A stretch of DNA of 64,000 nt from positions 1 to 64,000 of the IMG/VR virus record IMGVR_UViG_3300045988_134109; one strand, written 5' to 3'. Origin of the DNA: a virus. Positions 7,993 through 43,042 of the stretch are shown here, piece by piece (the stretch's first letter is position 1; every line of letters begins with the position of its first letter). The notes under the pieces were generated by a model. That model was not told the DNA's origin and made no database searches. It worked only from the letters and a program-made list of their open reading frames with translations. The position numbers were made by a program, and so were the translations under genes.

Positions 7993-8029
7993 GAAACATA
8001 TTTAGTTATCATTTTTAATAACATATCTT

Positions 8030-25835: not shown

Positions 25836-28278
25836 ACTTAGACCTTACCAAAAAGAGGCAGTAGATGCCGGGCTTAAGTTTCTTACAGGAAGATCTAAGA
25901 AGCCTGGCATAATCGTAGCTCCATGCGGATGTCATGCAAAAGGATACGGAATACTCATGTATGACGGGACAATAAAGAAAGTGGAGGATATTGTAGTTGG
26001 AGATAGGGTAATGGGTGATGATGGAACCCCAAGAACTGTCCTGGAATTGCATAATGGAATAGATGACATGTATGAAATAAGACCTTTAAAAGGGAAGCCT
26101 TTTATCGTGAATAAAGGCCATATAATGTCAATGTATAGATTAAAAGATAAACGAAAAGATGGTCCATCTATAGAAGAAGTAAGCATCGGGGAGTATATAA
26201 AATTTGCTCCTTATCATAAGACGATTCTTAAGCTTAGAAGACCAAACGGTTTCGATTTTGAGGAATCTAAAAAGAATATGCCGTTAGATCCTTATTTTTT
26301 GGGATTGAGCCTTGGAGATGGCAGTATCACCTCCAGTCTTAGCATAACTACTCAACGACAAGAAATAGTAGAATATTTATATTCGTTTGTTAAGCAGTAC
26401 AATATGTATATAAGAGTAGCAGAGAAGAAAGGAACTAACAATAAGTCAAAATCTTATTTTTTATCAAAAGGATGTGGAAGAGGTGGGAACCCTATAATAA
26501 ATGCTATTAAAGATATAGGATTATACAATAGAAAATCTGGTGATAAATTTATACCAATACAATATCTTACATCAAATAAAGAAAACAGATATAAACTATT
26601 AGCTGGATTTCTTGACACAGATGCTTATTATAATAAATCAGGAAAAGGGTATGAGTATTGCAGTAAATCTGAAACAATGATGAAACAATTTGTTTTATTG
26701 TGTAGAAGTTTAGGATTGTTATGTTCAGGATACTCATGTAAACTTGTTGATGGTGTAAAATATTATAGAACTGGAATATATGGAAATTTAGAGAATATAC
26801 CCGTAAGGGTTGGTATAAGAAAAGGAGCCAATAGGATAATAAATAAAAATCCATATGTTGTTGGCTTCAAGGTAGAATATGTAGGAAAAGGAGAATATTA
26901 TGGTTTTACAACAGATGGGAACCATTTATATTTGGATGAGCAATGCTTTATTCATCATAATTCGGGAAAATCTTTAATAATATCCAAGATAGCACATGAA
27001 ATAAATAGACCGACGTTAGTATTACAGCCCTCAAAAGAGATTCTGGAGCAGAATTATGCAAAGGCTGTATCATTCGGTTCTAAACCTACCATATATTCTG
27101 CTTCATGTGGTATAAAGGAGCTGTCGGCTATGACTTATGCAACATTAAAGAGCATAAAGAAAGATGTAGCGAAGTTGAAGGATATAGGGATAGATACCTT
27201 ATTGATAGACGAATGTCATTCAGGATATTCCCCAGAAGAAGGTTCTGAATTTATGGAGTTTATGAGCAGGTTTCCAGAGGCGAAGGTGCTGGGCTTCACT
27301 GCCACGCCCTGCCGCCTCCGGACCTACAGCTCCATGCTGGAAGGGAACTATAGCAAGCTCAATATGCTGACGAAAGACGAACATAACTTCTTCAAGAAAA
27401 TAGTTCATGTAACTCAAATACAAGAACTAACCTCTCAAGGGTTTTGGTGTCCACTTAAGTACGAACGATGGTCGTTTGATGAATCGGCTCTGATGTTAAA
27501 CAGTACCGGGGCTGAATACACCAACGAATCTATTAAAGAAAGTATTGTAAGAAATGGCTTAAACAACTCTATCTACAAGCGCCTTCTTCAACTTATGAAC
27601 GAACGTAAAGCCATTTTGGTTTGCATGGATTCTATTGAATCATGTAATAGAATATCAGAGTTCATGAATGCCAAGATGGGAGCCATAACCGGTGTCGTAA
27701 CATCGCTAACAACCAAAAAGAAAAGAGAACAAATCATATCCGATTTCAAAGAAGGTAAGTTGAAGGTGGTTTTTAATTATTCAACGCTTGCTACCGGATT
27801 TGATTTTCCTGAACTTGATTGTGTGATGTTTGGTCGCCCAACTTTCTCATATTCAACGTATTACCAAATATTAGGCCGCGCCATCCGCATCCATCCTGAC
27901 AAGAAAGAGGCACTGATAGTTGATTGCTGCGACAACATGAGGCGCTTCGGCCGAATAGAGGACTTGACAATCGAACAATTTCCTTCTAAGGGTTGGTGTA
28001 TGTTTGCCGGCAATCAACTTCTGTCCAATATAAGGATGGGTGATATTATTACCAAAGACGAGATCCTTCGCCGGGCAGCCTCGCTTAAATCTGTGAATGG
28101 AGATGGTAGGAGAGAAGACGATCTTGACAGTATAATAATGTGGTTTGGAAAATATGAAGGAATTAGATTCAAGGATATACCAGTGTCGTATTTTAGGTTT
28201 TTGGCTGAGAATATGGCAGTAAAACCGGGAGATAGGAAAGAAAAGATTATCGAATATTATAATAGGATAAAGGCATGA
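25825..28278 (+). CDS. SF2 DNA helicase (UvsW/XPB-like; extein of 473 aa) interrupted by an intein in the Walker A motif; C-terminal DUF3820-like tail
   Basis: LRPYQ at the N-terminus, APCG|intein|SGKS reconstitutes APCGSGKS; LIDECH (motif II), GFTATP (III), ILGRAIR (VI); C-terminal IMWFGKYEGIRFKDIPVSYFRFL resembles the FGKYKG...P.SYL.WL domain. Confidence 0.75.
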   Translation: MGFELRPYQKEAVDAGLKFLTGRSKKPGIIVAPCGCHAKGYGILMYDGTIKKVEDIVVGDRVMGDDGTPRTVLELHNGIDDMYEIRPLKGKPFIVNKGHIMSMYRLKDKRKDGPSIEEVSIGEYIKFAPYHKTILKLRRPNGFDFEESKKNMPLDPYFLGLSLGDGSITSSLSITTQRQEIVEYLYSFVKQYNMYIRVAEKKGTNNKSKSYFLSKGCGRGGNPIINAIKDIGLYNRKSGDKFIPIQYLTSNKENRYKLLAGFLDTDAYYNKSGKGYEYCSKSETMMKQFVLLCRSLGLLCSGYSCKLVDGVKYYRTGIYGNLENIPVRVGIRKGANRIINKNPYVVGFKVEYVGKGEYYGFTTDGNHLYLDEQCFIHHNSGKSLIISKIAHEINRPTLVLQPSKEILEQNYAKAVSFGSKPTIYSASCGIKELSAMTYATLKSIKKDVAKLKDIGIDTLLIDECHSGYSPEEGSEFMEFMSRFPEAKVLGFTATPCRLRTYSSMLEGNYSKLNMLTKDEHNFFKKIVHVTQIQELTSQGFWCPLKYERWSFDESALMLNSTGAEYTNESIKESIVRNGLNNSIYKRLLQLMNERKAILVCMDSIESCNRISEFMNAKMGAITGVVTSLTTKKKREQIISDFKEGKLKVVFNYSTLATGFDFPELDCVMFGRPTFSYSTYYQILGRAIRIHPDKKEALIVDCCDNMRRFGRIEDLTIEQFPSKGWCMFAGNQLLSNIRMGDIITKDEILRRAASLKSVNGDGRREDDLDSIIMWFGKYEGIRFKDIPVSYFRFLAENMAVKPGDRKEKIIEYYNRIKA
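25930..26961 (+). mobile_element. intein (344 aa) with a LAGLIDADG homing-endonuclease domain
   Basis: starts with Cys (CHAKGYGILMYDGT..VEDIVVGDRV Hint block A) and ends ...CFIHHN followed by Ser of the extein; internal FLGLSLGDGSI and LAGFLDTDAY LAGLIDADG motifs. Confidence 0.8.
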
Positions 28279-28631
28279 ACAACAAGAGAAGAAAAAAAAT
28301 ATTGGATGTTATTAACAACGTAAATAAGTATAAAACGGATTTTGAATACATCAAATCAAAGTTATCGGAGTTGAAGTACAACATAAATTCAGCCAAAGAT
28401 GATGTTGATATGATTTTAGATGAAGAGACGGAGGCGAGAGATAATATACCGGAATCGTTACAAGACTCAGAAAGATATTGGGAATCAGATCAGGCTGTAA
28501 CTGATATGGAGGAGGTGGTTGATGACATGGAAAGTATTATAAATGATATAGATGATGTGATTTCAACCATAGATGGGAGCATTAAAACCATAAATGGTTC
28601 TATTAAAGTAAATTTGGAAGGAGTAATATAA
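28275..28631 (+). CDS. hypothetical acidic protein (118 aa)
   Basis: ATG overlapping the upstream stop. Confidence 0.5.
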   Translation: MNNKRRKKILDVINNVNKYKTDFEYIKSKLSELKYNINSAKDDVDMILDEETEARDNIPESLQDSERYWESDQAVTDMEEVVDDMESIINDIDDVISTIDGSIKTINGSIKVNLEGVI

Positions 28632-28877
28632 ATGAAAACAAATGAATTAAGGGAAATACTTAAATTGTATGGTCTTCAACATGATGTTGTTATCAACAAA
28701 AGTTCAAGAAGGTATTCTATTATCTTAGATAATAACATAATAGGAACCAATCACGACAAAGAGAGGGTGGTTGTGTTCCGTCCTATACCGGAAGGGAAAA
28801 ACACATTCTGCATGGAGCGAGATAGGTTCTACACGGAGTTTGAAGAAGCTTTTGATGATGTTGACATACTCCCATAG
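28632..28877 (+). CDS. 5' part of a gene disrupted by the IS insertion (76 native codons, then 5 codons plus stop from the IS end)
   Basis: SD GGAAGGAG then ATG; the reading frame runs into TTGACATACTCCCATAG of the IS right end. Confidence 0.6.
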   Translation: MKTNELREILKLYGLQHDVVINKSSRRYSIILDNNIIGTNHDKERVVVFRPIPEGKNTFCMERDRFYTEFEEAFDDVDILP

Positions 28878-29776
28878 CTAAAGCAAATGGGATTCTTGGA
28901 TACAAACGTATGGAACCCCGGTATTTCTACCGCTGGAATTACCCATACTCTCCAATTCGGAAATGCCCTTCCGAAGTATATTACGGGCTGCAAGAACATC
29001 ACGGTCGTTGACCGCGCCGCACGACGGGCATACCCACGTGCGGTCGCGTAACGACAGACCTTTATTAATGCAGCCACATTCACAAGTTTTGGAAGAAGGA
29101 TACCATTTATCATTTGTTCCCATCACTTTTAGTTAGATAAGTTTTCAGGCCAAAATCCAATCCGATAGATGCACCATCATGTGTCTTTCTATAAGAGTTT
29201 GAAGGATTATGATCTGTAACTATAATCAAACTAAAGCGGGAACAGGTTTCTTTAACTATTCTTATTTGTTTAACATTACCTTCGTAGACTCTACTGTATG
29301 AAAATCTAAATCGTTTCTTCCCTTTGTTAATTGTTAAACAATTACCATTCAGGGTAAAACCACCTTGTTTGAAAACAAAAGAATTGAATTTCTCCGGTGA
29401 TTTAAACTTAGGAGGTCGTTTAGCCAACTTCTTAAAGAAACGATTATAAGATTCATCAAGACGTTCAAGTATTTCTTGTGTTGTTTGGGAATGAAGCAAG
29501 TTTCTTTTAATTCTTTTGGCAAAATACTTCTTCATTTTGCCAACTGAGATATATTTTCCAAACAGTTTGTAATACCTACGTTGTAGAGCTAACGCATGAT
29601 TCCACACAAAACAACATTCACGAAGTATCTTGACAAGATACTTCGTTTTCTTCGAATGATAGATGTTGTATTTGTATGAAATCATTTTTTTATCTGTAAT
29701 TTTGATTCAAAATTAATCAAACCAATTCATCCACCTTCTAAAGTATGGTGGTTTTGTTGGTTAAATAATCATAAAA
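28861..29776 (-). mobile_element. IS200/IS605-family TnpB-only element, copy 2 (916 bp, decayed)
   Basis: the right end (28861-28993) is ~90% identical to 42783-42915; 29466-29776 matches 10219-10514; the flanking ORFs fuse in frame when 28861-29776 is removed. Confidence 0.8.
28878..29685 (-). pseudogene. tnpB: tnpB pseudogene: N-terminal 191 aa (through RuvC-I IGLDFGL) plus a frameshifted C-terminal 82 aa (zinc finger CxxC..CxxC plus RuvC-III DRDVLAARNI); ~100 aa including RuvC-II are missing
   Basis: two ORFs at 29110-29685 and 28878-29126 overlap in different frames; the N-terminus MISYKYNIYHS..CCFVWNHAL is typical of OrfB/TnpB. Confidence 0.75.
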
Positions 29777-29778
29777 AG

Positions 29779-30024
29779 GATGAAGATGAAAAAGGGTATG
29801 TCTATACCGTAAGAATAAAACAAAACAACGGAAGGGTTGTGCATGCTACTCTATTTTTTAAAGACAAGAAAGGCCCTACATTTGAAGATTTAAAGAAGGA
29901 GCTTGATGGCATGGGAGTTAAAAATGATAGTTATAGCAATAACGGCATAATTATCATTAACCGCATTATCATGAGCGGAGAAGAATTTGATCGCTTTGTA
30001 GGAGATGATGGGCGATATTATTAG
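29779..30024 (+). pseudogene. 3' part of the IS-disrupted gene; in frame with 28632-28860 after in-silico excision of 28861-29776 (track ORF 29839-30024)
   Basis: the open frame extends without an ATG from the IS boundary (DEDEKGYVYTVRIKQNNGRVVHATLFF...); joining ...EEAFDD + E + DEDEKG... restores a 159-aa ORF. Confidence 0.6.
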
Positions 30025-30060
30025 ACAGTTAATTAAAATAACGATAAAACAAAATAAAAG

Positions 30061-30606
30061 ATGGACGATATTATTATTAAAAAAGGAACCGATGTAGTTC
30101 TTAACAGAGATCTTAATGTTCGTGAAGTAACAGTAGCCAGAAAAGGACTTAAGGTTGCATGTGAAAAGGATATCAAAAAAGGAGATACAGAAGTTACACT
30201 GTCATACGAAGGTCGTATGGAGTTCGATGTACCAGTTGAATATATATCTAAGAGTGATAATACTCTTTTTGAAAATAAAGAAAGTAAGTCGGTGAAGAAT
30301 GACATCATAGACGACAAACTACGATGGGACTTGCTTCCAATGGAGGAGATTGAAGACATTGTAAGAGTCTATCATGCTGGTGCAAAGAAGTACGGACCCA
30401 ATAAATGGCAGAACCTTGACAACGGGTTTGAACGGTATCGTGCTGCGGCTGCCAGACACCTAATGGAATACATGAAAGGGGAAAGAATAGACTCAGATAC
30501 AGGAGCTTTTCATCTTGCACAATGTGCATGGAATTGTATAGCTATGCTGTGGTATGATAAGCACGGGAAAGGATTAATACCATTAAATAAGGAGGAAAAG
30601 AAATGA
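30061..30606 (+). CDS. dATP/dGTP pyrophosphohydrolase-domain (MazG-like) protein (181 aa)
   Basis: LRWDLLPMEEIEDIVRVYHAGAKKYGPNKWQN...YRAAAARHL matches the phage dATP/dGTP diphosphohydrolase N-terminal domain pattern (L.P..L..V..FGA.KY..NW..G...Y.aA..RHL). Confidence 0.5.
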   Translation: MDDIIIKKGTDVVLNRDLNVREVTVARKGLKVACEKDIKKGDTEVTLSYEGRMEFDVPVEYISKSDNTLFENKESKSVKNDIIDDKLRWDLLPMEEIEDIVRVYHAGAKKYGPNKWQNLDNGFERYRAAAARHLMEYMKGERIDSDTGAFHLAQCAWNCIAMLWYDKHGKGLIPLNKEEKK

Positions 30607-30911
30607 CAAAAGAACAAATGATTCAACTGTTAGACACAGAGCTTGATGCAATGAACAAACATAGAAATAATATTGAAAGAATTAAAAAGGAATATTTCGA
30701 TTCTGTTTATGGATTCAAGAAGGGAGATAAGGTAAGCGTTCTTTACAAACGTTCGAAAGAACCTCTTGTTGGTTTCTTCAAGAGCATTCAAATCATGAGT
30801 ACTGGAACAGTTATATTTACAATCCAGGAAGTTAATAAAGAAGGAAGACCTGGAAGAGGATCTTATTTGGTGTATGAAGGCGATTTAAGCGAAATCAAAA
30901 AAGTAGAATAA
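30603..30911 (+). CDS. hypothetical protein (102 aa)
   Basis: SD TAAGGAGGAAAAG then ATG overlapping the upstream stop. Confidence 0.55.
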   Translation: MTKEQMIQLLDTELDAMNKHRNNIERIKKEYFDSVYGFKKGDKVSVLYKRSKEPLVGFFKSIQIMSTGTVIFTIQEVNKEGRPGRGSYLVYEGDLSEIKKVE

Positions 30912-30912
30912 C

Positions 30913-31434
30913 ATGATTAGAGCAAGATTTTACATTAGAAAGGATGACTGTAACAATGATTACCGTCCAGTCAAATGGTCTATAAAATATCCATATTGGT
31001 GTAGTGCAGAATCCAGTAATTCATTTGTATTGGTAGCGTATGCTGAAGATGAAGACAGCATAAAAGAACTGTGGCCGGAGGCGTATGATATTAATGTCTT
31101 AGAGAAAGATACCGAAATTAGATTCACATTAAGATTTCCTAAGCCGGAATGGTATGAATTATATGAAGAAATGTATGATACATTTGTGTGGATTACAGAC
31201 ACATGTCTGCAAGATGGTAAGATAAGAAAAGTAAAAGCTAAAATAGAAGATTATGATGGTACTTTATTAGCCGACACTCCTGGCCGGTTCACTCCTTATA
31301 CAATAGGGTATCAAGCTTTTAAAAGTAAAGAAGAAGCTTTGAAATATGCAGAGGAACAGAGAACGGATTTAATTAAGCATCTTAAGTTGCAAATACACGA
31401 ACTTGAAAATCTAAAATTTAAATGCGATGATTGA
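30913..31434 (+). CDS. hypothetical protein (173 aa)
   Basis: ATG ORF. Confidence 0.55.
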   Translation: MIRARFYIRKDDCNNDYRPVKWSIKYPYWCSAESSNSFVLVAYAEDEDSIKELWPEAYDINVLEKDTEIRFTLRFPKPEWYELYEEMYDTFVWITDTCLQDGKIRKVKAKIEDYDGTLLADTPGRFTPYTIGYQAFKSKEEALKYAEEQRTDLIKHLKLQIHELENLKFKCDD

Positions 31435-31487
31435 ATAATTTGATTATTTTACAAATAACGATTACATTTACGATATAAATCATTCAA

Positions 31488-32678
31488 ATGAGATTAGTTG
31501 AAAGGCATATAGTTAAAGACAACCGGTTTGAGGATATTTGCTTCAAATCCGGCTTGTTATATAATTATGTTCTTTACAACATTCGTCAAGGAATCTTTTC
31601 AGGTAACTATTTAAAGGAATTTGATTTATCAGACAAACTTTGCAAAGAAAACCAATTCGATTTCAGGAATTTACCTAATCATGTATCCCAACAGGTGATT
31701 AAACAGGTATTTAAAAACATAAAATCCTGGATAAAACTCAAGAAGGATTTTGAAAAGAATCCTTCTAAATACGGAAATCATAGACCTCACCTTCCATCAT
31801 ACAAACAAGGTAAGAAACAAAACATGGTTGTTTTCACCAACTGCAATTGTAGGGTAAAGGGTGATAATTGTATTTATTTTGTTAAAGATATAATCAAACC
31901 TATCAAAACAAATGTAAAGAAAGACGAACTAAAACAAGTTAGAATAATCCCTCAAGCTACATGTTATGTAGTAGAGGTAGTTTATGAAAGAAAGGAAACT
32001 GATCTTGGTTTAAACAAAGACAATTTTCTTTCGATTGATTTAGGATTGAATAATTTATGTTCATGTATTAGTAATGTAGAAACTAATTCTTTCATTATAA
32101 ACGGACGGGTTATGAAATCAGTAAATCAGTGGTACAATAAGAAGAAAGCTAAGTTGATGTCTTTTGTTGGTAATAAGGGAACTTCAAATAGAATAAGAAA
32201 AATTACTTTGTTTAGAAATTGTTGGATAGAAGACAAATTGCATAAAATCAGTAGATACATTGTAGACTTTTGTAAATCTAACAATATAGGAACAATCATC
32301 ATTGGATTAAACAAAGAATGGAAAAACGAGATAAATATCGGTAAAAGGAATAACCAACATTTTGTTTCTATTCCTCATTCTAAATTGATCGATAAGATTG
32401 TTTACAAAGCAAATCTTTTAGGGATAGAGGTAATTACTCATGAGGAATCTTACACATCAAAGATTGACCATCTTGCTTTTGAACCTCTAAAGAAACAAGA
32501 ATCCTATTTAGGGAAAAGAAAGAAACGTGGATTATTCCAAAGTTCCGTTGGAAAGCTAATTAATGCTGATATTAATGGAGCTATAGGAATAGCAAGAAAA
32601 GTAGTCGGTGATTCTTTCATTGGAAAGATAATCGATAGTGGATTTGTGTTTAATCCGGTTAGAATAAATATTTTGTGA
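31488..32678 (+). CDS. tnpB: full-length TnpB (IS200/IS605 OrfB-type RNA-guided nuclease homolog, 396 aa); RuvC-I/II/III residues present, zinc-finger cysteines absent
   Basis: LSIDLGLNN (RuvC-I D), ITHEESYTSKIDH (RuvC-II E), INADINGAIGIARK (RuvC-III D, NADxNAAxNIA pattern); the segment between RuvC-II and RuvC-III (SKIDHLAFEP...RGLFQSSVGKL) has no CxxC pairs. Confidence 0.75.
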   Translation: MRLVERHIVKDNRFEDICFKSGLLYNYVLYNIRQGIFSGNYLKEFDLSDKLCKENQFDFRNLPNHVSQQVIKQVFKNIKSWIKLKKDFEKNPSKYGNHRPHLPSYKQGKKQNMVVFTNCNCRVKGDNCIYFVKDIIKPIKTNVKKDELKQVRIIPQATCYVVEVVYERKETDLGLNKDNFLSIDLGLNNLCSCISNVETNSFIINGRVMKSVNQWYNKKKAKLMSFVGNKGTSNRIRKITLFRNCWIEDKLHKISRYIVDFCKSNNIGTIIIGLNKEWKNEINIGKRNNQHFVSIPHSKLIDKIVYKANLLGIEVITHEESYTSKIDHLAFEPLKKQESYLGKRKKRGLFQSSVGKLINADINGAIGIARKVVGDSFIGKIIDSGFVFNPVRINIL

Positions 32679-32694
32679 TATAAGGTTGAATCTA

Positions 32695-33432
32695 ATGAAT
32701 AAAATGAATAATTTTAATAACATTAACTACGCAGCAAAAGCCAGAAAAGCTTATTTGATAAATAATTTCGATAAGATTCTTAACAGCCTCAACACGCTTC
32801 ATTCAACGGTTGAAACCATGACGTTGTTCGTAAATGACCAGGCTTATAATTACATTCTTAAGCTGAAGGAAGTGATTAAGGGCGGCCCTATGTACAGGCA
32901 TAATGTCAAACGATTTTTGAATGAGATGGATAAGGAGATAAAGAAGTATAATGCTTCTATCTACTACATAAATAAAGAGCGTAGTGAGGTTATAGCTGAT
33001 ATAACACAAGCGATGGAAGATTACCTCATGCCATACATAGACGACCTGGCCGGCGCTATAAGGGCAGCCGTGTGGTCGAGGGGTGTATCCGAGGAGCGGA
33101 CGGAGGTGGCGGTACTGTCCCTAATCGTATCCTCCTTGGCCACGACATCAGGCAGACTTATCTCAGGTGGATATCAGATCATGAAAGAAATGGGTGGGGG
33201 TCAAGGTGGTAATCCATTTACGTTTATGAGCATTGATAAGATAAGACACTTATCTACATCATTATCTGATGCTATTACCGGTGGAGAAATAGCTCTTGAA
33301 GAAAAAGAAGCCAATGACATAACTAAGGCAATGGATGTTTTTATTGAGAAAATGTCAGATTCGTATATTGTTGATAAGGTGATCAGCATACTTGAAGAGG
33401 CAGAATCTAAAAACAAGGAGGAAGTATCATGA
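32695..33432 (+). CDS. hypothetical protein (246 aa from the ATG at 32695)
   Basis: the track start at 32686 is TTG, 8 nt after the tnpB stop; the first ATG is at 32695. Confidence 0.5.
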   Translation: MNKMNNFNNINYAAKARKAYLINNFDKILNSLNTLHSTVETMTLFVNDQAYNYILKLKEVIKGGPMYRHNVKRFLNEMDKEIKKYNASIYYINKERSEVIADITQAMEDYLMPYIDDLAGAIRAAVWSRGVSEERTEVAVLSLIVSSLATTSGRLISGGYQIMKEMGGGQGGNPFTFMSIDKIRHLSTSLSDAITGGEIALEEKEANDITKAMDVFIEKMSDSYIVDKVISILEEAESKNKEEVS

Positions 33433-33911
33433 ATTTAAAACTCGTATGTCCTAAGTGTGGTGCCAAGCACAATCCCAACTCTACACATTCAATGAATGCC
33501 TCGGATTTCATAGAAGGGGACATTAGGACCATTATGGAAGAACGTGGGTGGTGCTTTCAGTGCGCCTGCTGGCAGAATATATACAACGTACACAAAGACA
33601 ATCCAGGATGGGTTAGAATCGATGGCGTAAGCTGGATTATCAAACCTATGGCAGCGATCGTACCAGGTGGATGGAATGCTCTTGGATGCGGAGGGAGAAA
33701 GATGTATATTAACATCGAAGGAAAGGGTATTGTTGTATCTAATAATACTTGGTGTCAGGGCTATGTTCCAAAAGTCTTTAAGGAACTGATGCCTGATAAT
33801 GCTACGTGGGCTACGAAAGAGGAATACGATAAAGCTCCTACAGTAGGATACGTTATAGAAGGTGTTGGTTTGATTTTCACAGATAGGACAGGTCATGAAG
33901 TTAATGTTTAG
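33429..33911 (+). CDS. hypothetical Cys-rich protein (160 aa)
   Basis: strong SD ACAAGGAGGAAG then ATG overlapping the upstream stop; CPKCG...CFQCAC. Confidence 0.6.
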   Translation: MNLKLVCPKCGAKHNPNSTHSMNASDFIEGDIRTIMEERGWCFQCACWQNIYNVHKDNPGWVRIDGVSWIIKPMAAIVPGGWNALGCGGRKMYINIEGKGIVVSNNTWCQGYVPKVFKELMPDNATWATKEEYDKAPTVGYVIEGVGLIFTDRTGHEVNV

Positions 33912-34159
33912 GAATCTATTCCATACTCCTCTTAGAATAGTTGAAAGGAAATTAACTAATGGGGAAGTGGAATATTGATGCCAATATCAAAACATTTTTG
34001 GGAAATGGAAAAACAGGATAAAATACGATATGTTTGGCATGTGGTGTTATGCTGTTTTTTATTCATTCGAAGATGCGTATGAATTTAATTATGGTAAGAA
34101 CAAAGAAGAAAAGGTAAAGGTAGTGGATTCTTGTTACAAGAAAAGATGGTAACTACAAT

Positions 34160-34196
34160 AATCCCCGGCCATACAATAGGTGTACGGTTGGGGATT
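34160..34196. terminator. imperfect hairpin (AATCCCC...GGGGATT) in the convergent strand-switch region; candidate bidirectional terminator
   Basis: 7-bp GC-rich stem flanked by A-rich (upstream) and T-rich (downstream) sequence between the last plus-strand gene and the first minus-strand gene. Confidence 0.35.
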
Positions 34197-34232
34197 ATTG
34201 TAATATATGATTAATAACCGTCTTATCTTTTA

Positions 34233-34682
34233 TTATAATTCTACATAGGTGTCAATAGGAACAAAGCTGCCAATTGTACTTATCTTATATATTGAATGAA
34301 TAAGGTGAGTACTTGGACTTAATTTCAGTTGAGGTACTTGATTGGATCCTTCTGTAATAAAGAAATAATAAAAAACGTCTCCAATCGTAAACTGTAACAT
34401 AATATCACCTGTTACCGATCCTTCATTAAAGTAAGCCTGGATATATTGTCCAGAATTTGATATCGTACAATTTATAGGATTACCGCCCATCGTACATACC
34501 TTGCTATTATTAATTTCATCTAAAACATAGGAAGCCGCCATAGTTGCTCCATTAGATCGGTATCTACAACCAAGAATAGGTACAGGATTTCGCCATGTGG
34601 TTGTAGGGGCCGAAATCGAACAAGCAAAAACAGGGATCTTGCCGCCAGCAACTGTATTAATATTTTCAAATCTTCTTCTCAT
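34233..34682 (-). CDS. MRRRF-family small protein 1 (149 aa)
   Basis: ATG start; N-terminal MRRRFENINTVAGG shared with two paralogs. Confidence 0.6.
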   Translation of the reverse strand: MRRRFENINTVAGGKIPVFACSISAPTTTWRNPVPILGCRYRSNGATMAASYVLDEINNSKVCTMGGNPINCTISNSGQYIQAYFNEGSVTGDIMLQFTIGDVFYYFFITEGSNQVPQLKLSPSTHLIHSIYKISTIGSFVPIDTYVEL

Positions 34683-34686
34683 AATT

Positions 34687-34914
34687 TTATAAAATTAATT
34701 CAGTAAAAGGACGGACATAATGTGAACTACCCCTTGAACCTGTATCCAAATGATCTCCTTGGATGTTTATATCATAATACCACGAATAGGAAAATTTTTC
34801 ATTTCGAGTGGATGTCCACATTCTATTACTCATTATCGTACCTCCTACCATTAAAAGGCATTCGTTTATTTCATTAGCATACAATGATATCAAAAAAAAA
34901 CTCTCCGGCGCCAC
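34687..34914 (-). CDS. ORF that would be fused to MRRRF-2 by a 1-nt slip in the T9 tract (+1 frame; track start is GTG)
   Basis: no ATG start; begins inside the 3' end of MRRRF-2, immediately at the T9 run (top-strand A9 at 34892-34900). Confidence 0.3.
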   Translation of the reverse strand: MAPESFFLISLYANEINECLLMVGGTIMSNRMWTSTRNEKFSYSWYYDINIQGDHLDTGSRGSSHYVRPFTELIL

Positions 34915-35305
34915 CTACATATCCATTTTGACCATTTTTAAATAAATAGCTATTAGCTTTATTAAAAGCGTAATCTGTATTACTGGTATCATATTCAAGA
35001 TACGCATTCTGATTTTCACGCCCCCAATAATCCTTTTTAATAGTTCCCATATGAGAACTATCTTGTGCAAATATATTGTCTATTTCTCCATCCTTACCCC
35101 AACGAAATGTGCCAATATATTCGGTGGCTATAACAAAACACACTTTATCTACAAGAGCTATTCCATTGCATAGATCATTGGAATATCCTTTATTAGACCA
35201 ATTTTCTTTTGTATATAATCCTCCATCTACATGTTGGATGTATATGCCTTTATTGATTATAAGCGAGGGATTTACCCCCATCCCTATTTGAAATCTTCGT
35301 CTCAT
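34874..35305 (-). CDS. MRRRF-family small protein 2 (143 aa from the ATG at 35305)
   Basis: the track start at 35392 is TTG; the ATG at 35305 gives MRRRFQIGMGVNPS; the C-terminal ...KNGQNGYVGGAGEFFF aligns with paralog 3 (...NNSGNAIKLNGEFG). Confidence 0.55.
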   Translation of the reverse strand: MRRRFQIGMGVNPSLIINKGIYIQHVDGGLYTKENWSNKGYSNDLCNGIALVDKVCFVIATEYIGTFRWGKDGEIDNIFAQDSSHMGTIKKDYWGRENQNAYLEYDTSNTDYAFNKANSYLFKNGQNGYVGGAGEFFFDIIVC

Positions 35306-35348
35306 GATTTTTGTTTGCAAGATAGCAATAATTGACAACATAAAAGAA

Positions 35349-35383
35349 ACCGGTTCTCTATCATCTCTGACTGAGAACCGGTA
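35349..35383 (-). terminator. 10-bp perfect hairpin (ACCGGTTCTC/GAGAACCGGT) followed by a U-rich stretch on the minus strand; terminator after the 2148-aa gene
   Basis: the minus-strand RNA reads hairpin then UUCUUUUAUG; located between the 2148-aa gene and MRRRF-2. Confidence 0.5.
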
Positions 35384-35517
35384 AGAAAACAATTTTAGAA
35401 AAAATTAAACCTACATAATCTTTCAAGTAAGAACAAAAACGTATAGTCTACTCTTTGACGATGCTAATATAACATATTGGAATCATACAAAAACAATGCA
35501 AGTCCGGTATTCTTCGT

Positions 35518-38500
35518 CTATTTGTAACTAACATCATCGTCTCCTTCCGAATCAGGAGTAGCGCCGATGAAGAACATCATTGACTTGTTGTTCGTCTGCT
35601 GCCACCAATTATAGGCGCGCGCTACGTCTTCCGGCGTCTTGATATTATACCATTGTTTGATAAACGTCTGTTTGGCGAGTTGCCTAAATAACTTAGACTC
35701 TCCTTTGTATGTGCCGGATGTTACTTTATCAAGTGAGTAATTCCTAAGATCAGTAAGATCCTTCAACTTCCGCCCCATGACAAACGGGTCGTTAATGATA
35801 TCTACCACGTTAAGCTCCATAATAAACGGCATCTGTGAAGCTATTTCGTTTATGGTTCTGAATCCGACATAGGATCCAAATTGAGTAAGCCAACTTTCTT
35901 CGTTTTCATCATCATCACGCCATCCGGCAAGAAGCATAGATACGGCTTGCATGATAAGAAACGTGCCGGCATAGACACTGAGGCGTTTGAGATTAGTTTT
36001 TTCTACCTCATTCATATTGTCTTTATTTTCGTTCCAGGCATCTATGATGTTTTTCATACCAGACTCGGAAGCCAGGCTAAATGTTTTGGCTATCATATTC
36101 TTTAACGTAATTGACAACCCTTCCTCTTCTTGCATTGTCTGGAAATTGAAGCCACGTCTTTTCCACAGACGTTGAGCTGCCAGCACCAGCCAGCCTCGGT
36201 GGGCGGTCATGAACCTGGCTATCCAGTTGCGCGATGCGGCAGTTCGGTTTTCTTCATTCAAAGATCCGTTACATATCTGCGACAAGCTACGGACTTGATT
36301 CCTGGTTATAGCCATCTGGGTTTCAACTTCCTCAACAGTAACACCCGATCCCGGCTTTACAACCACCTTTCCATCCACGACGTCTACCATACTCCATAAA
36401 GTACGATCTTTTAATGCGTTCCATTCTCTTTTTATGGTACTCTGTTCTTTATTGCGTTCTTTTTCCATCTTGAAATCTTGGAACGTGTAGAACCGGCCTT
36501 TGTAATAACGAACATTGTCCATAGTAGCAATCATAACCTGCGGATCAAGAGGGTAGTTCAGGATTTCCATAAAAGCATACATCGGTGAACGCATTAAGGT
36601 CCTGGCCACTCTATTGTATCCGGCACCATACATACGATTTCGGATATTGAATATCCCCATTCTCTCACCTATGACATATAATTTGCTTTTCCTATCTATG
36701 TCTCCGGTTTCTGCTATACAAGATGGCGCAAGGCGTGAAAACTCAGCCGATGCGTATCTAAGGGAATCTTTACTTATATACTGTCCTACGGCAGATTCCA
36801 TGATGAGGTTGATGTGGCCGGTAAGGGCGCCGGTAGCTGCCACAAACGGGGACAGCGCCAGGTTCATGACCGACATAAATCTTTCAACGGCCATCATTAT
36901 CCTGGTAAGGTCTACTGTGTACCCACCGATGTTTACCGTCAGTTTTTTGGTGTTCATTCTAATGCCATAATAATGGTCATTGAAGAAGTCTCTAAACATC
37001 TGATATGCTTGAGTTGCTTCAGCTTTCTTCCCGCCTTCAAATTGCTTATTCAGCAACATCTGCTCCAGCCCTTGTGCAAGCTCTATAGATTTCTGCTTTT
37101 CGTTGTATAATGATGACTGCATCATAAGCATCGAATAAGAGTAGCCAAAATCGTGAGATACGTCATCTTGGTTCTCTAATTCATATATGTAGTATTTAGG
37201 TATGGACCGAACCCTATCTTCCGGATCATATACCTCACCCTGGCGTGTTTTACCATACAGGGAGTCATCTACGCGGTCAAGACATAAATCGGATACGAAG
37301 TTCCTGACCGTACTTTTAAGGCTGATACCCAATCCTTCTACACGTTCTATATCTTGTTTGGATATCTGTGGAATAGCATACAGATTAGGGCTCTGCTCTT
37401 TATATAGATCAAGGGATTGTCTTTTTATTTCCTTGAGTTTTTGAATCATATTCCACTGCTCTACGTTTTTAGTAGCGACCTCATTACCATCAGCATCATA
37501 CTTAATGCCGAAGTCGTTGAAATACGATTCATCACGATACAGGCTCTTCTTGGGCATACGATGACCATACCCATGATCTTTTACATAATCAGGGTTACGA
37601 CCGCTATTTTCGGCCTCAGATTCAGCCACCCACGCTCTTGCAGGGTCGAAAGAAAGGTACGATATGTCCATACCATAATCTTGTGTGGAAGTCCCATTCT
37701 GTACGTCCTTAACCATCTGCGCTACATCTATCTCACCTCGACCGATTTTGTCGATCATAGCCGCATATCCGGTAGGCGCCATGCGTTTATAGTACGAAAA
37801 GACCTGGCTCCTGGCAAATTCATTAACAATAGCATTAGCTTCTTCTATGCCCGCTTTTATGTCAGCTTCTATACCCTCTTCCCTTGTATTATTTAAAAAT
37901 AAGCTGGCCATCTTAGCATTAACAGCATTCCTAAAATCTCTACCGTCTAATTCTTTGCTTATACCAAGCTTTTCTGACAGGTAGTTGGTTTCAGATACGG
38001 TAAACAGATATCGGTTATCAGCAGCCTTAAACAGCTTATCCCTTAAAGCCTGAATCCTTTTTGCTTTCTTCGCCGTAGTATGACGTTGTACGAACTTCCA
38101 TTCCACTTCCTTAGAGTCAGCAAGAGCATTTAAATAAGACTGATTGACTTCGTTTTCAGCCTTACTGCTTTTAGTAAGGTATTTATCAATATCTTCAAGA
38201 CCCACCATCTTAGCATAATCTATCAAAATAGCGTAATCGGTTTCAATAGCTTCGGATGCGGCCCTAAAAGCATCTCTTTCAGATGAGGTAAATGTCGCTT
38301 CATTGATTTCTCCGATGTCAGCCACGTCACGGTTGTTGCCGATTATTTCCTTGATAATGGCCTTATTTTTTTCTATATCTTTTACAATGGAATCCACGTC
38401 AGTCGCATCTCTATCACTTGTCGTAGAACTAATGATGTCTTGTGCCATTTTGAGATACGAAGCCTTGTTATTTGATTCGGTACGTGCCGACTGTTCCGAT

Positions 38501-41500
38501 TCTATGTCATTCCAAAACCGATCGTTAAATGACAGGTGCCCTCCCAACATAAGTGTCTTCAGCGCAGCTTCTCCTCCTGACTCGATTTGAATCGTTCTCA
38601 ATTTTTGTAAAAACGATTCTGATACGGCATTAGTGACATTATTTGATTCTTTTCTCCAAACTTCATTTATGGCTTGTATTTCTTTAGCCATCTTAAGCTG
38701 GTCTCCGGTTTTTTCAACACGTCTGGTACCAACATATATGTATTCCGAAGCTGCTTCCTTACGTTGTTTACGAAGCAGTCCTTCTTCTTCGTAGTTACTA
38801 CTCTTATAGTAGGCAACCTCATCAAAATTACCACCGCTATCAATAAAAGGCTGCCTCAATATCCGTTTTTGCCGGGAAAGAGCATTAAGGTATTCTTTAG
38901 TTGTTTGAGAAACCGGATGCCCTAATTCTTCTTCGGCCTTTTTGTATATGGATTCCATTCTTGTGGCATAACTTTCACTAAATTCCAATTCTGAATTTTC
39001 AGCATCCCACTTTTCCATCTGCTCCGTATAGATCTTTTCCTGCTCGATGGTAAAAATATCGGTATTAACCCTATCGGACGATGGTTTAAATTTAGCGTTT
39101 TCAGTAACCGTATTTCCGTCCTTGTCAACTACTTCTCTTTTAAATACGTAATTACGATTATTATCAACCACATCATTGATTTCTTCTTCTGATATTTCTA
39201 TGTTCATGGCAGTCGCGAACGCACGCATCTGTGCCAGTTTCTTATTACGATCGTATTTAGCCATATCAAGAGCACTACGAAGGTAATTAGAAGTTTTGCC
39301 GTCTACTTTCTGAAGCAGTTTTTCAAATTCAGATTTGTTAAAACCATGCTTTTTAGCATATGCCAGGAAGTCGGATATGGCGGGCTGGGCATTCACCATC
39401 GCATTGTAATTGTCTTTGGCAATCATAGCTCCAAGAGCGTTATTGAACGGACTGGAAGAATGCTCTAATATACCGAACCACCTACTTATCCAAGAAACAT
39501 CGTGTTGAACCTTGTCAAAAAATTCTTTTACTCTCTTTACCTTATCTGCCGGCACATGAAGTTCGTTCATTAACTTATCAAGCAACGTACTTTCATCAAG
39601 GTCTTGTACTGATTTAATATCAGACTGAATACCATTGATGTCGGCAATGACGGTATTGATCCTATTTGTATAATCCTGCTTTTCACGTTCATCAAATTCG
39701 GTACTTCTGTTACGGATATATCCTCGAAGATCGTTCATGATCGGAAGAACCTGATTGTTGATAATATCTACGTTCTTTCGATCATTGGTATTGAAGTGAA
39801 GCTTACCATCTTTGGTATCACCATGAAGGATGGTGTTCACCACATTGCTTAAGTATCTGACCTGAGCTTCGGCTGTAGAGATCATGCTATTCATGGCAGC
39901 CGCCATCTCATTCTTGTCTATTTCGGTCTCTACCTTATTTATCTTATCTTCTATAGTCTTAAGCTGAGCAAGGGTCATAGACGTAGTTACAGCCCTATCA
40001 GAGCTTATCTGACGCAAGTCTCTTAAGGTTTTTCTCAATGCCCGGATCTTAGACTCAAGAAACTTGTTCTTGTTCATAGAAGAAAGGGAGTATAATGTAA
40101 AGTCATTATCCTTTAACAGAGAGGTATCAAATCCTTTATCTATGTCAGTAATGGCAAGATCACGAATGCTTTTAATAACGTTATTCAAATCTTGTCTTTG
40201 GGTTGATAAAGCTGATTTAAGCCAGCTTACGATTCCAGAGAGAAGCTGCCGGACGCGCCCCAGGAAGGAGGTGGGCTCTACCGGCGCCTGTGCTGTTCCG
40301 GTCTGCATCTCCCTGGCGAGGATCTTTCCAAGAATTTCTCTCCTAACAGCATTATCAAGCTCAGCTCCTTCATATACCTTACCGTATGTATTATAATACT
40401 GACCTGCATACTGGTTCCACTCTTCCGTACCTTCTACATCTTGCAGAACAGCCTCAACAGCATTCTGATCTCTGTATGCCTCTACAAGGAAGTGGGCTGT
40501 TTCTTCTACTAAATCAGATAAAGTAGCATCTTCACCAACTGCTATTACGTTATTGGCAATATCCGCCAATGCCTTAGCAGAAGGTTCATGCCCGTATTTG
40601 GTTTGGTACTTCTCTATATAGTCGGTCATACCTATGACACTAACGCCAAGAGTTTTCAGTATCTCGACAATAGAATTTCGTTGATCACGTTCCTGCCTGC
40701 TATAATCTGATACGATCTTAGCTTTAGTATCAGCATAAAGATCGTTGTCTTCTAATATGAATGAAACTACAAGCGCATCAAAATGATCGTACTTGGCGTC
40801 CAATTCATTGTATCTTCCTGACTTAAGATCGTTCTTTATCTGCTCTTTGCTAACCCTTTCCGTTCCTCCGGTAGCGAGCCTCATAGTTACCTTGCTATTA
40901 TCCAACGAGCTTATGGTTATCATACCTTGGTCGTTCATGGAAACATCGGAACCAAAATGATTACGGAGCTCGGTGTAGGATAATGCTGAATTGAAAAGTC
41001 TAATTTGTCCTGTATGTCCTTCTCCTGTAAGATAATAGCTTCTTGTTTCCGAATCGAATATCTTAGATCCTGACAAAAGACCTTTCTTTATAAGGTAGTT
41101 AATTATCCCGCCTTTTGTTGATAAAGAAGTAGAAGCAGACGCGGTCATGACCGGTATAAAAGACTTGGGATTATTAAGAACATACTTTCCAGCCTTGTAT
41201 GTAATGTCTGCCACGCCATCCACGGTAGATTCTTGAACGGTGCCGGATAAGAATCCTATTCTAATATCATTCCCACCAGAACGAAGAGCTTCTCCGTAAT
41301 CTTCAAATAATTGACTACGATCGTTCATAAAAAACAAACGAGGCTCTCCGGTCTGATACGTTACACCCACAGGATTAGGATCTGCCTCCGGTAGCTCTTC
41401 TGGGCTAAATATCTTAAGACCGTCTTTTATAACCATATAATTAGCATCCTTATCCTGTACCATAGATACGGGAGTGAAGTCCGAAGATATAGCATCTTGT

Positions 41501-42915: not shown

Positions 42916-43042
42916 ATACTTTTTAAAACAAACCAGGGCCCGCATCACTGCGAACCCTGATCTACGCTAATCTAAACTAATACCATGAAAAACTTAAATC
43001 TAAAAACTAAAGAACACACAAATGTATGAAAATGTATGGTTT

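Follow-up and report, generated by a model that had tools for sequence, protein, structure and literature searches.

The insertion sequences (IS) of the IS607 family, such as IS607 of Helicobacter pylori, ISXfa1, ISFba1 and CboIStron, are the closest described relatives of the element analysed here, a tnpB-carrying insertion in a 64,000-nt stretch of viral DNA (hereafter the window; IMG/VR virus record IMGVR_UViG_3300045988_134109, positions 1 to 64,000). In these elements, as in ours, the omegaRNA (a predicted one in ours) overlaps the 3' end of tnpB and extends past the right end (RE), subterminal repeats are present, and there are neither terminal inverted repeats nor target duplications. 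The TnpA of IS607 combines a MerR-like helix-turn-helix (HTH) with a serine recombinase and overlaps the start of tnpB, an arrangement that relatives of the window element also carry, and the junctions of both share a dinucleotide with the empty site, which is GG in IS607 (PMC6188088, PMC10711439) and AT in the window. For this family a role in homing and maintenance has been shown experimentally (PMC10690162). The window element differs from the known members in several respects: its tnpA has been precisely deleted; its crossover site and presumed target-adjacent motif (TAM) read ..[G/T]AT, unlike GG (IS607) or AGGAG (ISFba1); its TnpB has no zinc finger and an apparently relocated glutamate, unlike that of ISFba1 (D194/E290/D371; PMC11061315); its predicted omegaRNA matches no Rfam family, RAGATH-18 included; its RE carries the start codon of the neighbouring gene; and its hosts are lytic-type crAss-like phage genomes.

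In IStrons, which combine an IS605 or IS607 element with a group I intron, a TnpB element in or at a gene is likewise made phenotypically silent while the omegaRNA is kept. They achieve this by RNA splicing, unlike the window element, which would be silenced at translation through a stop in its left end (LE) and a start in its RE, and in which no intron was detected with Rfam. The free-standing homing endonuclease genes of phages (Seg and Mob, in T-even and other phages) are, like tnpB here, small nuclease genes placed between conserved phage genes, present in some relatives only and expected to spread in co-infection by cutting the empty allele; unlike them, the window element has transposon ends, and its target would be RNA-guided and set by the presence or absence of the element itself. 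Within the phage group to which the window belongs, TnpB 'transposases' have been annotated in crAssE-Sib and other Epsilonunovirus genomes, in some members only (Viruses 2024, PMC11054128). The genes are only annotated there, and the crAssE-Sib copies lie at other loci; their identity to the window's two TnpBs is 45% and, in the other family, 81%. The protein type, the loss of its zinc finger, the occurrence of TnpB in these phages and the logic of homing are therefore already known; the novelty lies in an IS607 derivative without tnpA that provides a stop and a start codon through its ends, together with a population signature of homing in crAss-like phages.

When positions 28000-36000 of the window were compared with its closest relative, the epsilon crAss-like phage crAssE-Sib (66% of the region aligns, at 93% identity), 31432-32723 (1,292 bp) proved to be a precise insertion that is absent from that genome. 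Joining the two flanks gives the empty site, no bases being duplicated save the shared AT, and the left boundary is uncertain by up to 3 nt because of a GAT GAT repeat. In MT835500 (locus L002; the compared loci carry L numbers), where the flanks are unrelated, homology to the window runs only from ~31487 to 32723, and the last 125 nt are almost identical. The reading that we consider likely is that of a non-autonomous IS607-family insertion, made of a 56-nt LE, tnpB and an RE encoding the omegaRNA, from which tnpA has been lost; this judgement applies jointly to the insertion, the supply of codons to the neighbouring genes, homing and mobilisation in trans. An earlier reading of the window from its sequence alone (the sequence-only reading) had allowed for either a TnpB resident or domesticated in the phage or an IS whose right end overlaps the start of the next gene, and the precise empty site, the defined ends and ~25 other insertion sites bear out the latter.

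Those other sites came from IMG/VR, where 80 further loci contained TnpB relatives at 70-100% identity. In epsilon crAss-like phages the family occupies ~25 distinct sites, with two phage contigs holding two copies each, and across all of them the RE terminates in ...TTTTAATAAC(A/G)T, homology being lost sharply at 32723 across at least three contexts. Among the compared loci, empty alleles were found for eight sites besides that of the window: in the 'AT' subfamily (RE end AT) the left flank ends in GAT in 6/6 empty-defined sites, the window's included, and in the 'GT' subfamily (RE end GT) it ends in TAT in 3/3. For the window and all six 'AT'-subfamily sites the crossover dinucleotide (AT) is the same at both junctions and in the target. 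Copies differ by at least 8% between sites and are 98-100% identical at the window's own site; since each site has its own TnpB lineage, moves to new sites are rare. No second copy of this TnpB was found by tblastn against the 64-kb window.

The two ends of the element supply codons to both neighbouring phage genes. In crAssE-Sib these genes overlap directly (...GAT GAT TAA / ATG ATT AAT TAC...), and in empty alleles the stop of the upstream gene is the TAA of the right flank (...GAT GAT|TAA...), which in the window gives way to the first bases of the LE (...GAT GAT|TGA ATA...). The RE tail contains two TGAATAA repeats, in-frame ATGs at 32695 and 32704 and the terminus TTTTAATAAC-AT, and the downstream ORF runs in frame from these ATGs, reading MNKMNNFNN-INYAAKA where crAssE-Sib has M-INYAAKA. 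The same arrangement recurs elsewhere in the family: the codon at the RE end opens a long frame-0 ORF (64 to >800 codons) at 16 of the ~25 sites, a long ORF in another frame follows the RE at only two, and at four sites the empties show that the native ATG was split as AT|G. Members of the 'GT' subfamily cannot use starts further upstream, because their RE contains an in-frame TAA, and at all ~13 distinct sites the RE is followed by a G, which rebuilds GTG; in the 'AT' subfamily, by contrast, upstream in-frame ATGs are present and the base that follows the RE varies, a difference which argues that the RE is used as the start of the neighbouring gene. In the literature searched we found no description of an RE serving in this way. 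As the sequence-only reading had stated, tnpB is tightly packed, with 53 nt between the upstream ORF end (31434) and its ATG and with the next mechanical ORF starting at TTG 32686 or ATG 32695; its statement that there is no room for an RE does not hold, because the RE extends 45 nt beyond the tnpB stop, as far as 32723, overlapping the beginning of the next ORF.

With the LE supplying a stop and the RE a start, we propose that the insertion would be phenotypically silent and transcribed with the operon. It is possible, and we put this forward only tentatively, that the ends of this phage-borne IS607/TnpB lineage are an evolved translational patch which allows harmless insertion exactly on start codons of phage genes, by a GTG or ATG rebuilt at the junction or by in-frame ATGs shortly before it, with homing also engaged in an arms race with its target that would appear as balanced synonymous polymorphism limited to +4, +7 and +10 of the empty site; if true, such a patch would be the protein-level counterpart of IStron splicing. 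A scan for sigma-70 promoters and terminators returned fewer promoter-like sites than shuffled sequences and none useful at the ends, Bacteroidota-type promoters lying outside its coverage.

The ancestry of the element follows from its transposase-bearing relatives. A genome scan with a 12-sequence TnpB alignment retrieved bacterial and archaeal relatives, ~65 of them with enough upstream sequence, and in ~20 of these an IS607-type serine recombinase lies directly upstream of tnpB, as an ORF of 190-210 aa that overlaps the tnpB start and has the HTH and Resolvase domains of IS607 TnpA. They include Helicobacter, Prevotella, Hallella, Phocaeicola and Asgard archaea, and none of the bacterial or archaeal relatives examined had a Y1 (HUH) transposase beside tnpB. 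The Prevotella and Hallella IS607 copies end in ...TTTTAATAACGT, as the phage elements do, and also share the LE core and the omegaRNA core. Moreover, a related phage contains an autonomous IS607 (L093:1917-2489, in IMGVR_UViG_3300045988_093114), whose serine-recombinase tnpA (Resolvase plus HTH) sits directly upstream of a 77%-identical tnpB, and the LE before its tnpA ATG is colinear with the LE before the window's tnpB ATG. In MT835500 about the last 125 nt of tnpA remain and tnpB is interrupted. The sequence-only reading had noted the lack of a partner TnpA, and indeed no tnpA was detected in the 64-kb window, nor in the other compared phage loci except L093; given its presence in L093 and ~20 relatives, the window copy is a non-autonomous derivative, in which the LE abuts the tnpB ATG because tnpA was precisely deleted. 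The junction rule first looked IS605-like, and it is the transposase association and the homology of the ends that place the element in IS607. Its transposase could be provided by phage or host IS607 copies: moves to new sites would be rare and would need an IS607 serine recombinase in trans, from an autonomous relative in another phage or from the Prevotella/Hallella IS607 copies with the same end sequences.

The distribution of the element at its own site was obtained from two scans of the collection for related loci, the second of which retrieved loci by a distal 17-mer. Among the 130 related loci listed, the site is occupied in at least 28 and empty in at least 102, proportions that are rough because one scan's pattern was designed from known variants, and all the listed empties read ..GATGAT|TAAYTAYGC.. 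or a close variant. Across 19 occupied loci nucleotide diversity was 0.001 in the LE and for the most part 0.001-0.006 in the element as a whole (reaching 0.06 in patches), compared with 0.08-0.12 in the left flank (0.078 in the adjacent 100 nt) and 0.04-0.09 in the right, so that diversity in the element is 10-50 times lower than directly beside it. The flanks of occupied loci are as diverse as those of the empties and the two interleave by flank distance, the nearest flank neighbour of an occupied locus being an empty one in 7-14 of 20 cases. An element far less diverse than its flanks, and occupied loci dispersed among empty ones, suggest RNA-guided copying into already diverged alleles, and RNA-guided homing and maintenance has been shown experimentally for IS605 and IS607 TnpB (PMC10055086, PMC10690162).

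In the mechanism that we propose, the 3' part of the tnpB transcript would be bound by TnpB and processed into an omegaRNA whose last ~16-20 nt are the adjacent phage sequence from 32724, the complex would cut the element-less alleles of co-infecting related phages (5'-NGAT|TAACTACGCAGC...), and recombinational repair would copy the element into the cut allele. The target itself shows balanced polymorphism at synonymous positions +4, +7 and +10, the three wobble positions closest to the junction (window 32727, 32730 and 32733), where diversity reaches 0.43-0.50 among the at least 102 listed empties (for example L113-L208 and L301-L348), and +13, +16, +19 and +28 to +37 are invariant in the same set. 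The commonest guide is matched over 20 nt by 10 of the 102 listed empties, and the polymorphism at +4, +7 and +10 could represent escape from cleavage at the TAM-proximal seed.

The putative omegaRNA corresponds to the last ~190 nt of the element, overlapping the 3' end of tnpB and stopping at the element boundary. The 230 nt that end at the RE terminus fold better than shuffled sequences (z = -3.1), and in an eight-helix consensus of 36 distinct sequences 96.8% of cells are paired, against 34-53% with slid partners, with compensatory changes in 11 pairs (2-4 when slid) and a covariation of 0.275 (at most 0.10 when slid). Its helices lie at 32534-32590, 32605-32635, 32639-32657, 32658-32663 with 32691-32696, and 32668-32681, followed by an A/T hairpin at 32701-32715. 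Covariation is strongest at 32605-32657, within the tnpB coding region; the terminal hairpin, which lies 8 nt from the RE end, has no compensatory changes and has been deleted from some copies. The covariation search that the sequence-only reading had suggested thus returned a conserved structure, and Rfam, run on the whole window at gathering thresholds and on 31300-32900 at E up to 1, returned no family, no RAGATH-18 and no group I intron. Characterised TnpBs use guides of 16-20 nt (PMC8612924, PMC11061315), and by analogy with them (PMC8612924, PMC10711439, PMC11061315) the guide would be the 16-20 nt past 32723 (TAACTACGCAGC...), and the empty site with NGAT in front of it would be the target; the guide start had earlier been placed at ~32680, 44 nt before the position now predicted, 32724.

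As for the protein, the 396-aa product is a full-length TnpB, as had been read from the sequence, and it passes the thresholds of the curated families NCBIfam NF040570 guided_TnpB (157.4 bits, cut-off 100), Pfam PF01385 OrfB_IS605 (64.5 bits, cut-off 30.5) and Pfam PF07282 Cas12f1-like_TNB (32.7 bits, cut-off 26.3). An AlphaFold2 model built from an alignment of 99 relatives (pLDDT 93.2, pTM 0.88, with residues 271-300 as the sole weak stretch) predicts a TnpB/Cas12f-like fold, the best Foldseek matches being AsCas12f (E = 3e-17), ISFba1 TnpB (1e-12) and ISDra2 TnpB (1e-11), with Fanzor2 also among them. A PDB search with the single sequence gave only a weak match, 'nuclease-deactivated Cas12f' (E = 3.6e-4), and a profile search of PDB aligned ISDra2 TnpB over the N-terminal half only. 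The gene is intact in 79 of 82 copies, dN/dS among copies up to 30% divergent is 0.05-0.13, and purifying selection acts on TnpB. Together with the retained catalytic residues and the structured, covarying omegaRNA, this dN/dS gives indirect support for activity, so that TnpB is probably an active RNA-guided nuclease, in line with the potential activity predicted before.

The catalytic residues were compared in 124 diverse TnpB relatives (35-89% identity), taken from an exhaustive search that yielded 4,802 cluster representatives. The window TnpB has the motifs LSIDLGL (D184), HEESYTSK (E319/E320) and NADINGA (D361); D184 and D361 are invariant across the 124 relatives and E320 is present in 123. 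All three RuvC motifs named in the sequence-only reading are thus there, but HEESYTSK does not occupy the canonical RuvC-II position, where Gly273 is found instead. In the 99-sequence alignment G273 is invariant and E320 nearly so; in the model G273 is the last residue of the beta-strand 267-273, and a profile alignment with AsCas12f puts the catalytic E324 of that protein in the loop following this strand and its CxxC pairs opposite KIDHLA and FQSSVG of TnpB, E320 preceding the zinc-finger position by five residues. By these alignments Gly273 stands where the canonical RuvC-II glutamate would be and the glutamate has moved to E320, which would make D184/E320/D361 a triad of the rearranged type.

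Such a rearrangement is known from the RIIr-5 TnpBs, in which the RuvC-II Glu has become Gly with a compensating glutamate elsewhere, and the NADxN form of RuvC-III is described in derived TnpB clades (Altae-Tran et al., PMC10691335). Like the RuvC-II-rearranged TnpBs (RIIr-5, 'pro-Fanzor'/TnpB2; Altae-Tran 2023, Yoon 2023), the window TnpB appears to have a Gly at the canonical glutamate (G273), an alternative glutamate (E320) just ahead of the zinc-finger position and an NADxN RuvC-III, and its copies are both solo and transposase-bearing. Most described RIIr/pro-Fanzor members keep CxxC...CxxC, unlike the window clade with 0-2 Cys there; Yoon et al. searched by this pattern, and the likeness of the window clade to RIIr-5 is one of residue features. 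The window TnpB has no cysteine in residues 319-361, as the sequence-only reading had observed, and between E319 and D361 the 124 relatives have none (33), one (76) or two (15), none of them with CxxC...CxxC in this stretch, which in the model is confidently predicted despite the missing Cys (pLDDT 90-95). C4 zinc fingers have been lost in large TnpB branches (PMC10691335), so membership of the TnpB family is not excluded, and because the missing zinc finger is the trait of a large clade the window copy is not the special variant that had been suggested.

Several of these features would also be expected of a domesticated TnpB, fixed in the phage, no longer mobile and serving it, for example, in RNA-guided attack on rival phages or host DNA, in replication or in recombination: the gene is co-oriented with the operon and tightly packed among phage genes, it is under strong purifying selection, and tnpA is missing from the window. 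Cutting element-free competitors also benefits the carrier phage, so this explanation overlaps partly with homing. We nevertheless consider domestication unlikely, since the site is empty in at least 102 of the 130 loci listed, the closest genome (crAssE-Sib) included, the same family sits at ~25 other sites, the ends are homologous to those of tnpA-bearing IS607, the predicted guide is simply the neighbouring phage sequence, which is the empty site of the element itself, and diversity is much lower in the element than in its flanks. Since related genomes contain scattered copies whose ends are defined, fixation at this locus, one of the options of the sequence-only reading, is not supported. 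Marginally less probable still is an IS200/IS605-type (IS1341-like) element, moved by a Y1 HUH TnpA through single-stranded DNA transposition and inserted 3' of a TAM ending in AT. The junction rule fits it at all sites, 'GT' subfamily included (3' of [G/T]AT, no duplication, fixed RE end), as does the short A/T hairpin 8 nt before the RE end; that hairpin, however, is weak, confined to the RE, devoid of compensatory changes and deleted in some copies, and bona fide Prevotella IS607 copies share the junction asymmetry. The transposases also speak against it, given that no bacterial or archaeal relative examined has a Y1 TnpA, ~20 have a serine recombinase, and in the autonomous phage relative the same LE is followed by a serine-recombinase tnpA.

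An inert relic, in which a dead IS with non-functional TnpB and RNA persists because it is harmless to its neighbours, would account for the lost tnpA, for the truncated LEs or interrupted ORFs of some copies (L002, L057, L091 and the L062 group) and for the presence, 2 kb away in the window, of another TnpB that is clearly degraded. It is very unlikely in view of a dN/dS of 0.05-0.13 across copies up to 30% divergent, of compensatory changes that maintain the RNA helices and of near-identical copies within diverged flanks. We give hardly any credence to the idea that the protein is a nuclease-dead regulator of the TldR type which controls transcription of the downstream gene under RNA guidance. 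The 5' end of that gene is where the guide would pair, and the best single-sequence PDB match is a nuclease-deactivated Cas12f, but the catalytic D, E and D are conserved clade-wide, the target in the occupied allele has no adjacent TAM because the RE precedes it, and the element is polymorphic and mobile.

Some results also weigh against the reading that we prefer, a homing, trans-mobilised IS607 derivative. A single recent insertion followed by frequent ordinary recombination could give a similar diversity pattern, occupancy among the loci listed is ~22%, itself a rough figure, and the occupied copies lie on at least four target alleles that differ at +4, +7 and +10, where simple homing with co-conversion predicts otherwise. 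At the junctions, the 'GT' subfamily and bona fide Prevotella/Hallella IS607 have AT, CT or GT on the left and GT on the right, so that sites with AT on the left and GT on the right do not fit the textbook IS607 crossover at identical dinucleotides, and some left junctions resemble microhomology joins with truncated LEs.

Table 1 Features of the element and its neighbours in the window.
Feature	Position	Strand	Evidence and remarks
Upstream phage gene, 173 aa	30913..31434	+	ORF; its stop TGA (31432-31434) is formed by the element's first three bases
Left-flank GAT, presumed TAM side	31429..31431	+	Empty alleles; AT would be the crossover dinucleotide if IS607 rules apply
LE, 56 nt, boundary to tnpB ATG	31432..31487	+	crAssE-Sib comparison; carries TGAATAATTT
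tnpB, RNA-guided nuclease family	31488..32678	+	ORF, family profiles, AlphaFold2 model, Foldseek, dN/dS
Predicted omegaRNA (reRNA) scaffold	32534..32723	+	Fold z-score, covariation
Non-coding RE tail, 45 nt	32679..32723	+	Terminus conserved over ~25 sites
Downstream phage gene	32695..33432	+	Native ATG overlapped the upstream stop (ATGATTAA), now parted by the insertion
Predicted guide flank (TAACTACGCAGCAAAAGCCA)	32724..32743	+	Directly 3' of GAT in empty alleles

Further observations concern the ends of the element. No inverted repeat joining LE and RE was found. The left junction (31429-31441) and the inside of tnpB (32044-32056, coding for GLNNL of RuvC-I) share a 13-nt exact repeat, GATTGAATAATTT, and the LE motif TGAATAATTT recurs in the RE at 32705-32714; these may be transposase-binding repeats or a coincidence. 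An LE boundary at ATAGT|TGAAT was ruled out, as empty sites show a flank ending in ..AT and an LE tip of [A/G]GT... Solitary matches to the RE-terminus 12-mer, with no adjacent tnpB, are found at 8013-8024 and 40170-40181 (+) of the window (TTTTAATAACAT and TTTTAATAACGT), and may be chance in AT-rich DNA or solo ends.

At other sites, the RE of L048, L060, L061 and L099 lacks 8-9 nt (the 5' arm of the terminal A/T hairpin) and their tnpB is intact. In L053 the left junction is that of L052 and L054-L056, but the RE joins the flank 35 nt further on, past another GAT, which makes it an adjacent deletion of the kind that a one-ended transposase event would leave. Positions 42955-43009 (-) of the window are the empty site for two other insertions of this TnpB family, occupied in L047/L090 (..TTTTAGAT|TTAAGTTTTTCATGG) and in L048 (..GTTTAGAT|TAGTGTAGATCAGGG). 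Two contigs filed as bacterial, L209 (Vibrio olivae CECT 8064, NZ_JBHMEP010000019) and L210 (uncultured Mollicutes UMGS1248), carry a 79%-identical tnpB. The flank of L209 is the phage flank of L067, so L209 is most likely a mis-binned crAss-like phage contig, which explains the NCBI name 'TnpB [Vibrio olivae]', and the flank of L210 matches no listed phage site.

The second TnpB of the window (28878-29685, -, within 28861-29770) is degraded and belongs to a different, canonical family. Its N-terminal 191 aa (RuvC-I GLDFG) are joined out of frame to an 82-aa C-terminus (CxxC...CxxC, NDRD), the RuvC-II region being deleted, and the 910-bp segment replaces ~155 bp of crAssE-Sib and is 80.6% identical to a crAssE-Sib 'transposase' at another locus. 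At 30731-30897 of the window, compared with L001 4984-6276, crAssE-Sib has a DNA (cytosine-5)-methyltransferase gene that the window lacks.

These findings correct the annotated start of the downstream gene and the annotation of the 'transposase' genes of these phages. A compact, zinc-finger-free TnpB of 396 aa with an apparently rearranged active site, a short predicted TAM (NGAT) and a defined putative omegaRNA may also be of interest for genome editing. For the biology of the phages, the element illustrates how an RNA-guided nuclease without a transposase of its own can persist where the genes of a lytic phage are densely packed. Its insertions lie at gene boundaries, the two neighbouring reading frames are restored by its ends, and cleavage of the empty alleles of co-infecting phages is probably how it spreads. 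Because epsilon crAss-like phages are abundant in the human gut, they would offer a natural population in which RNA-guided homing and the escape of its target can be measured.

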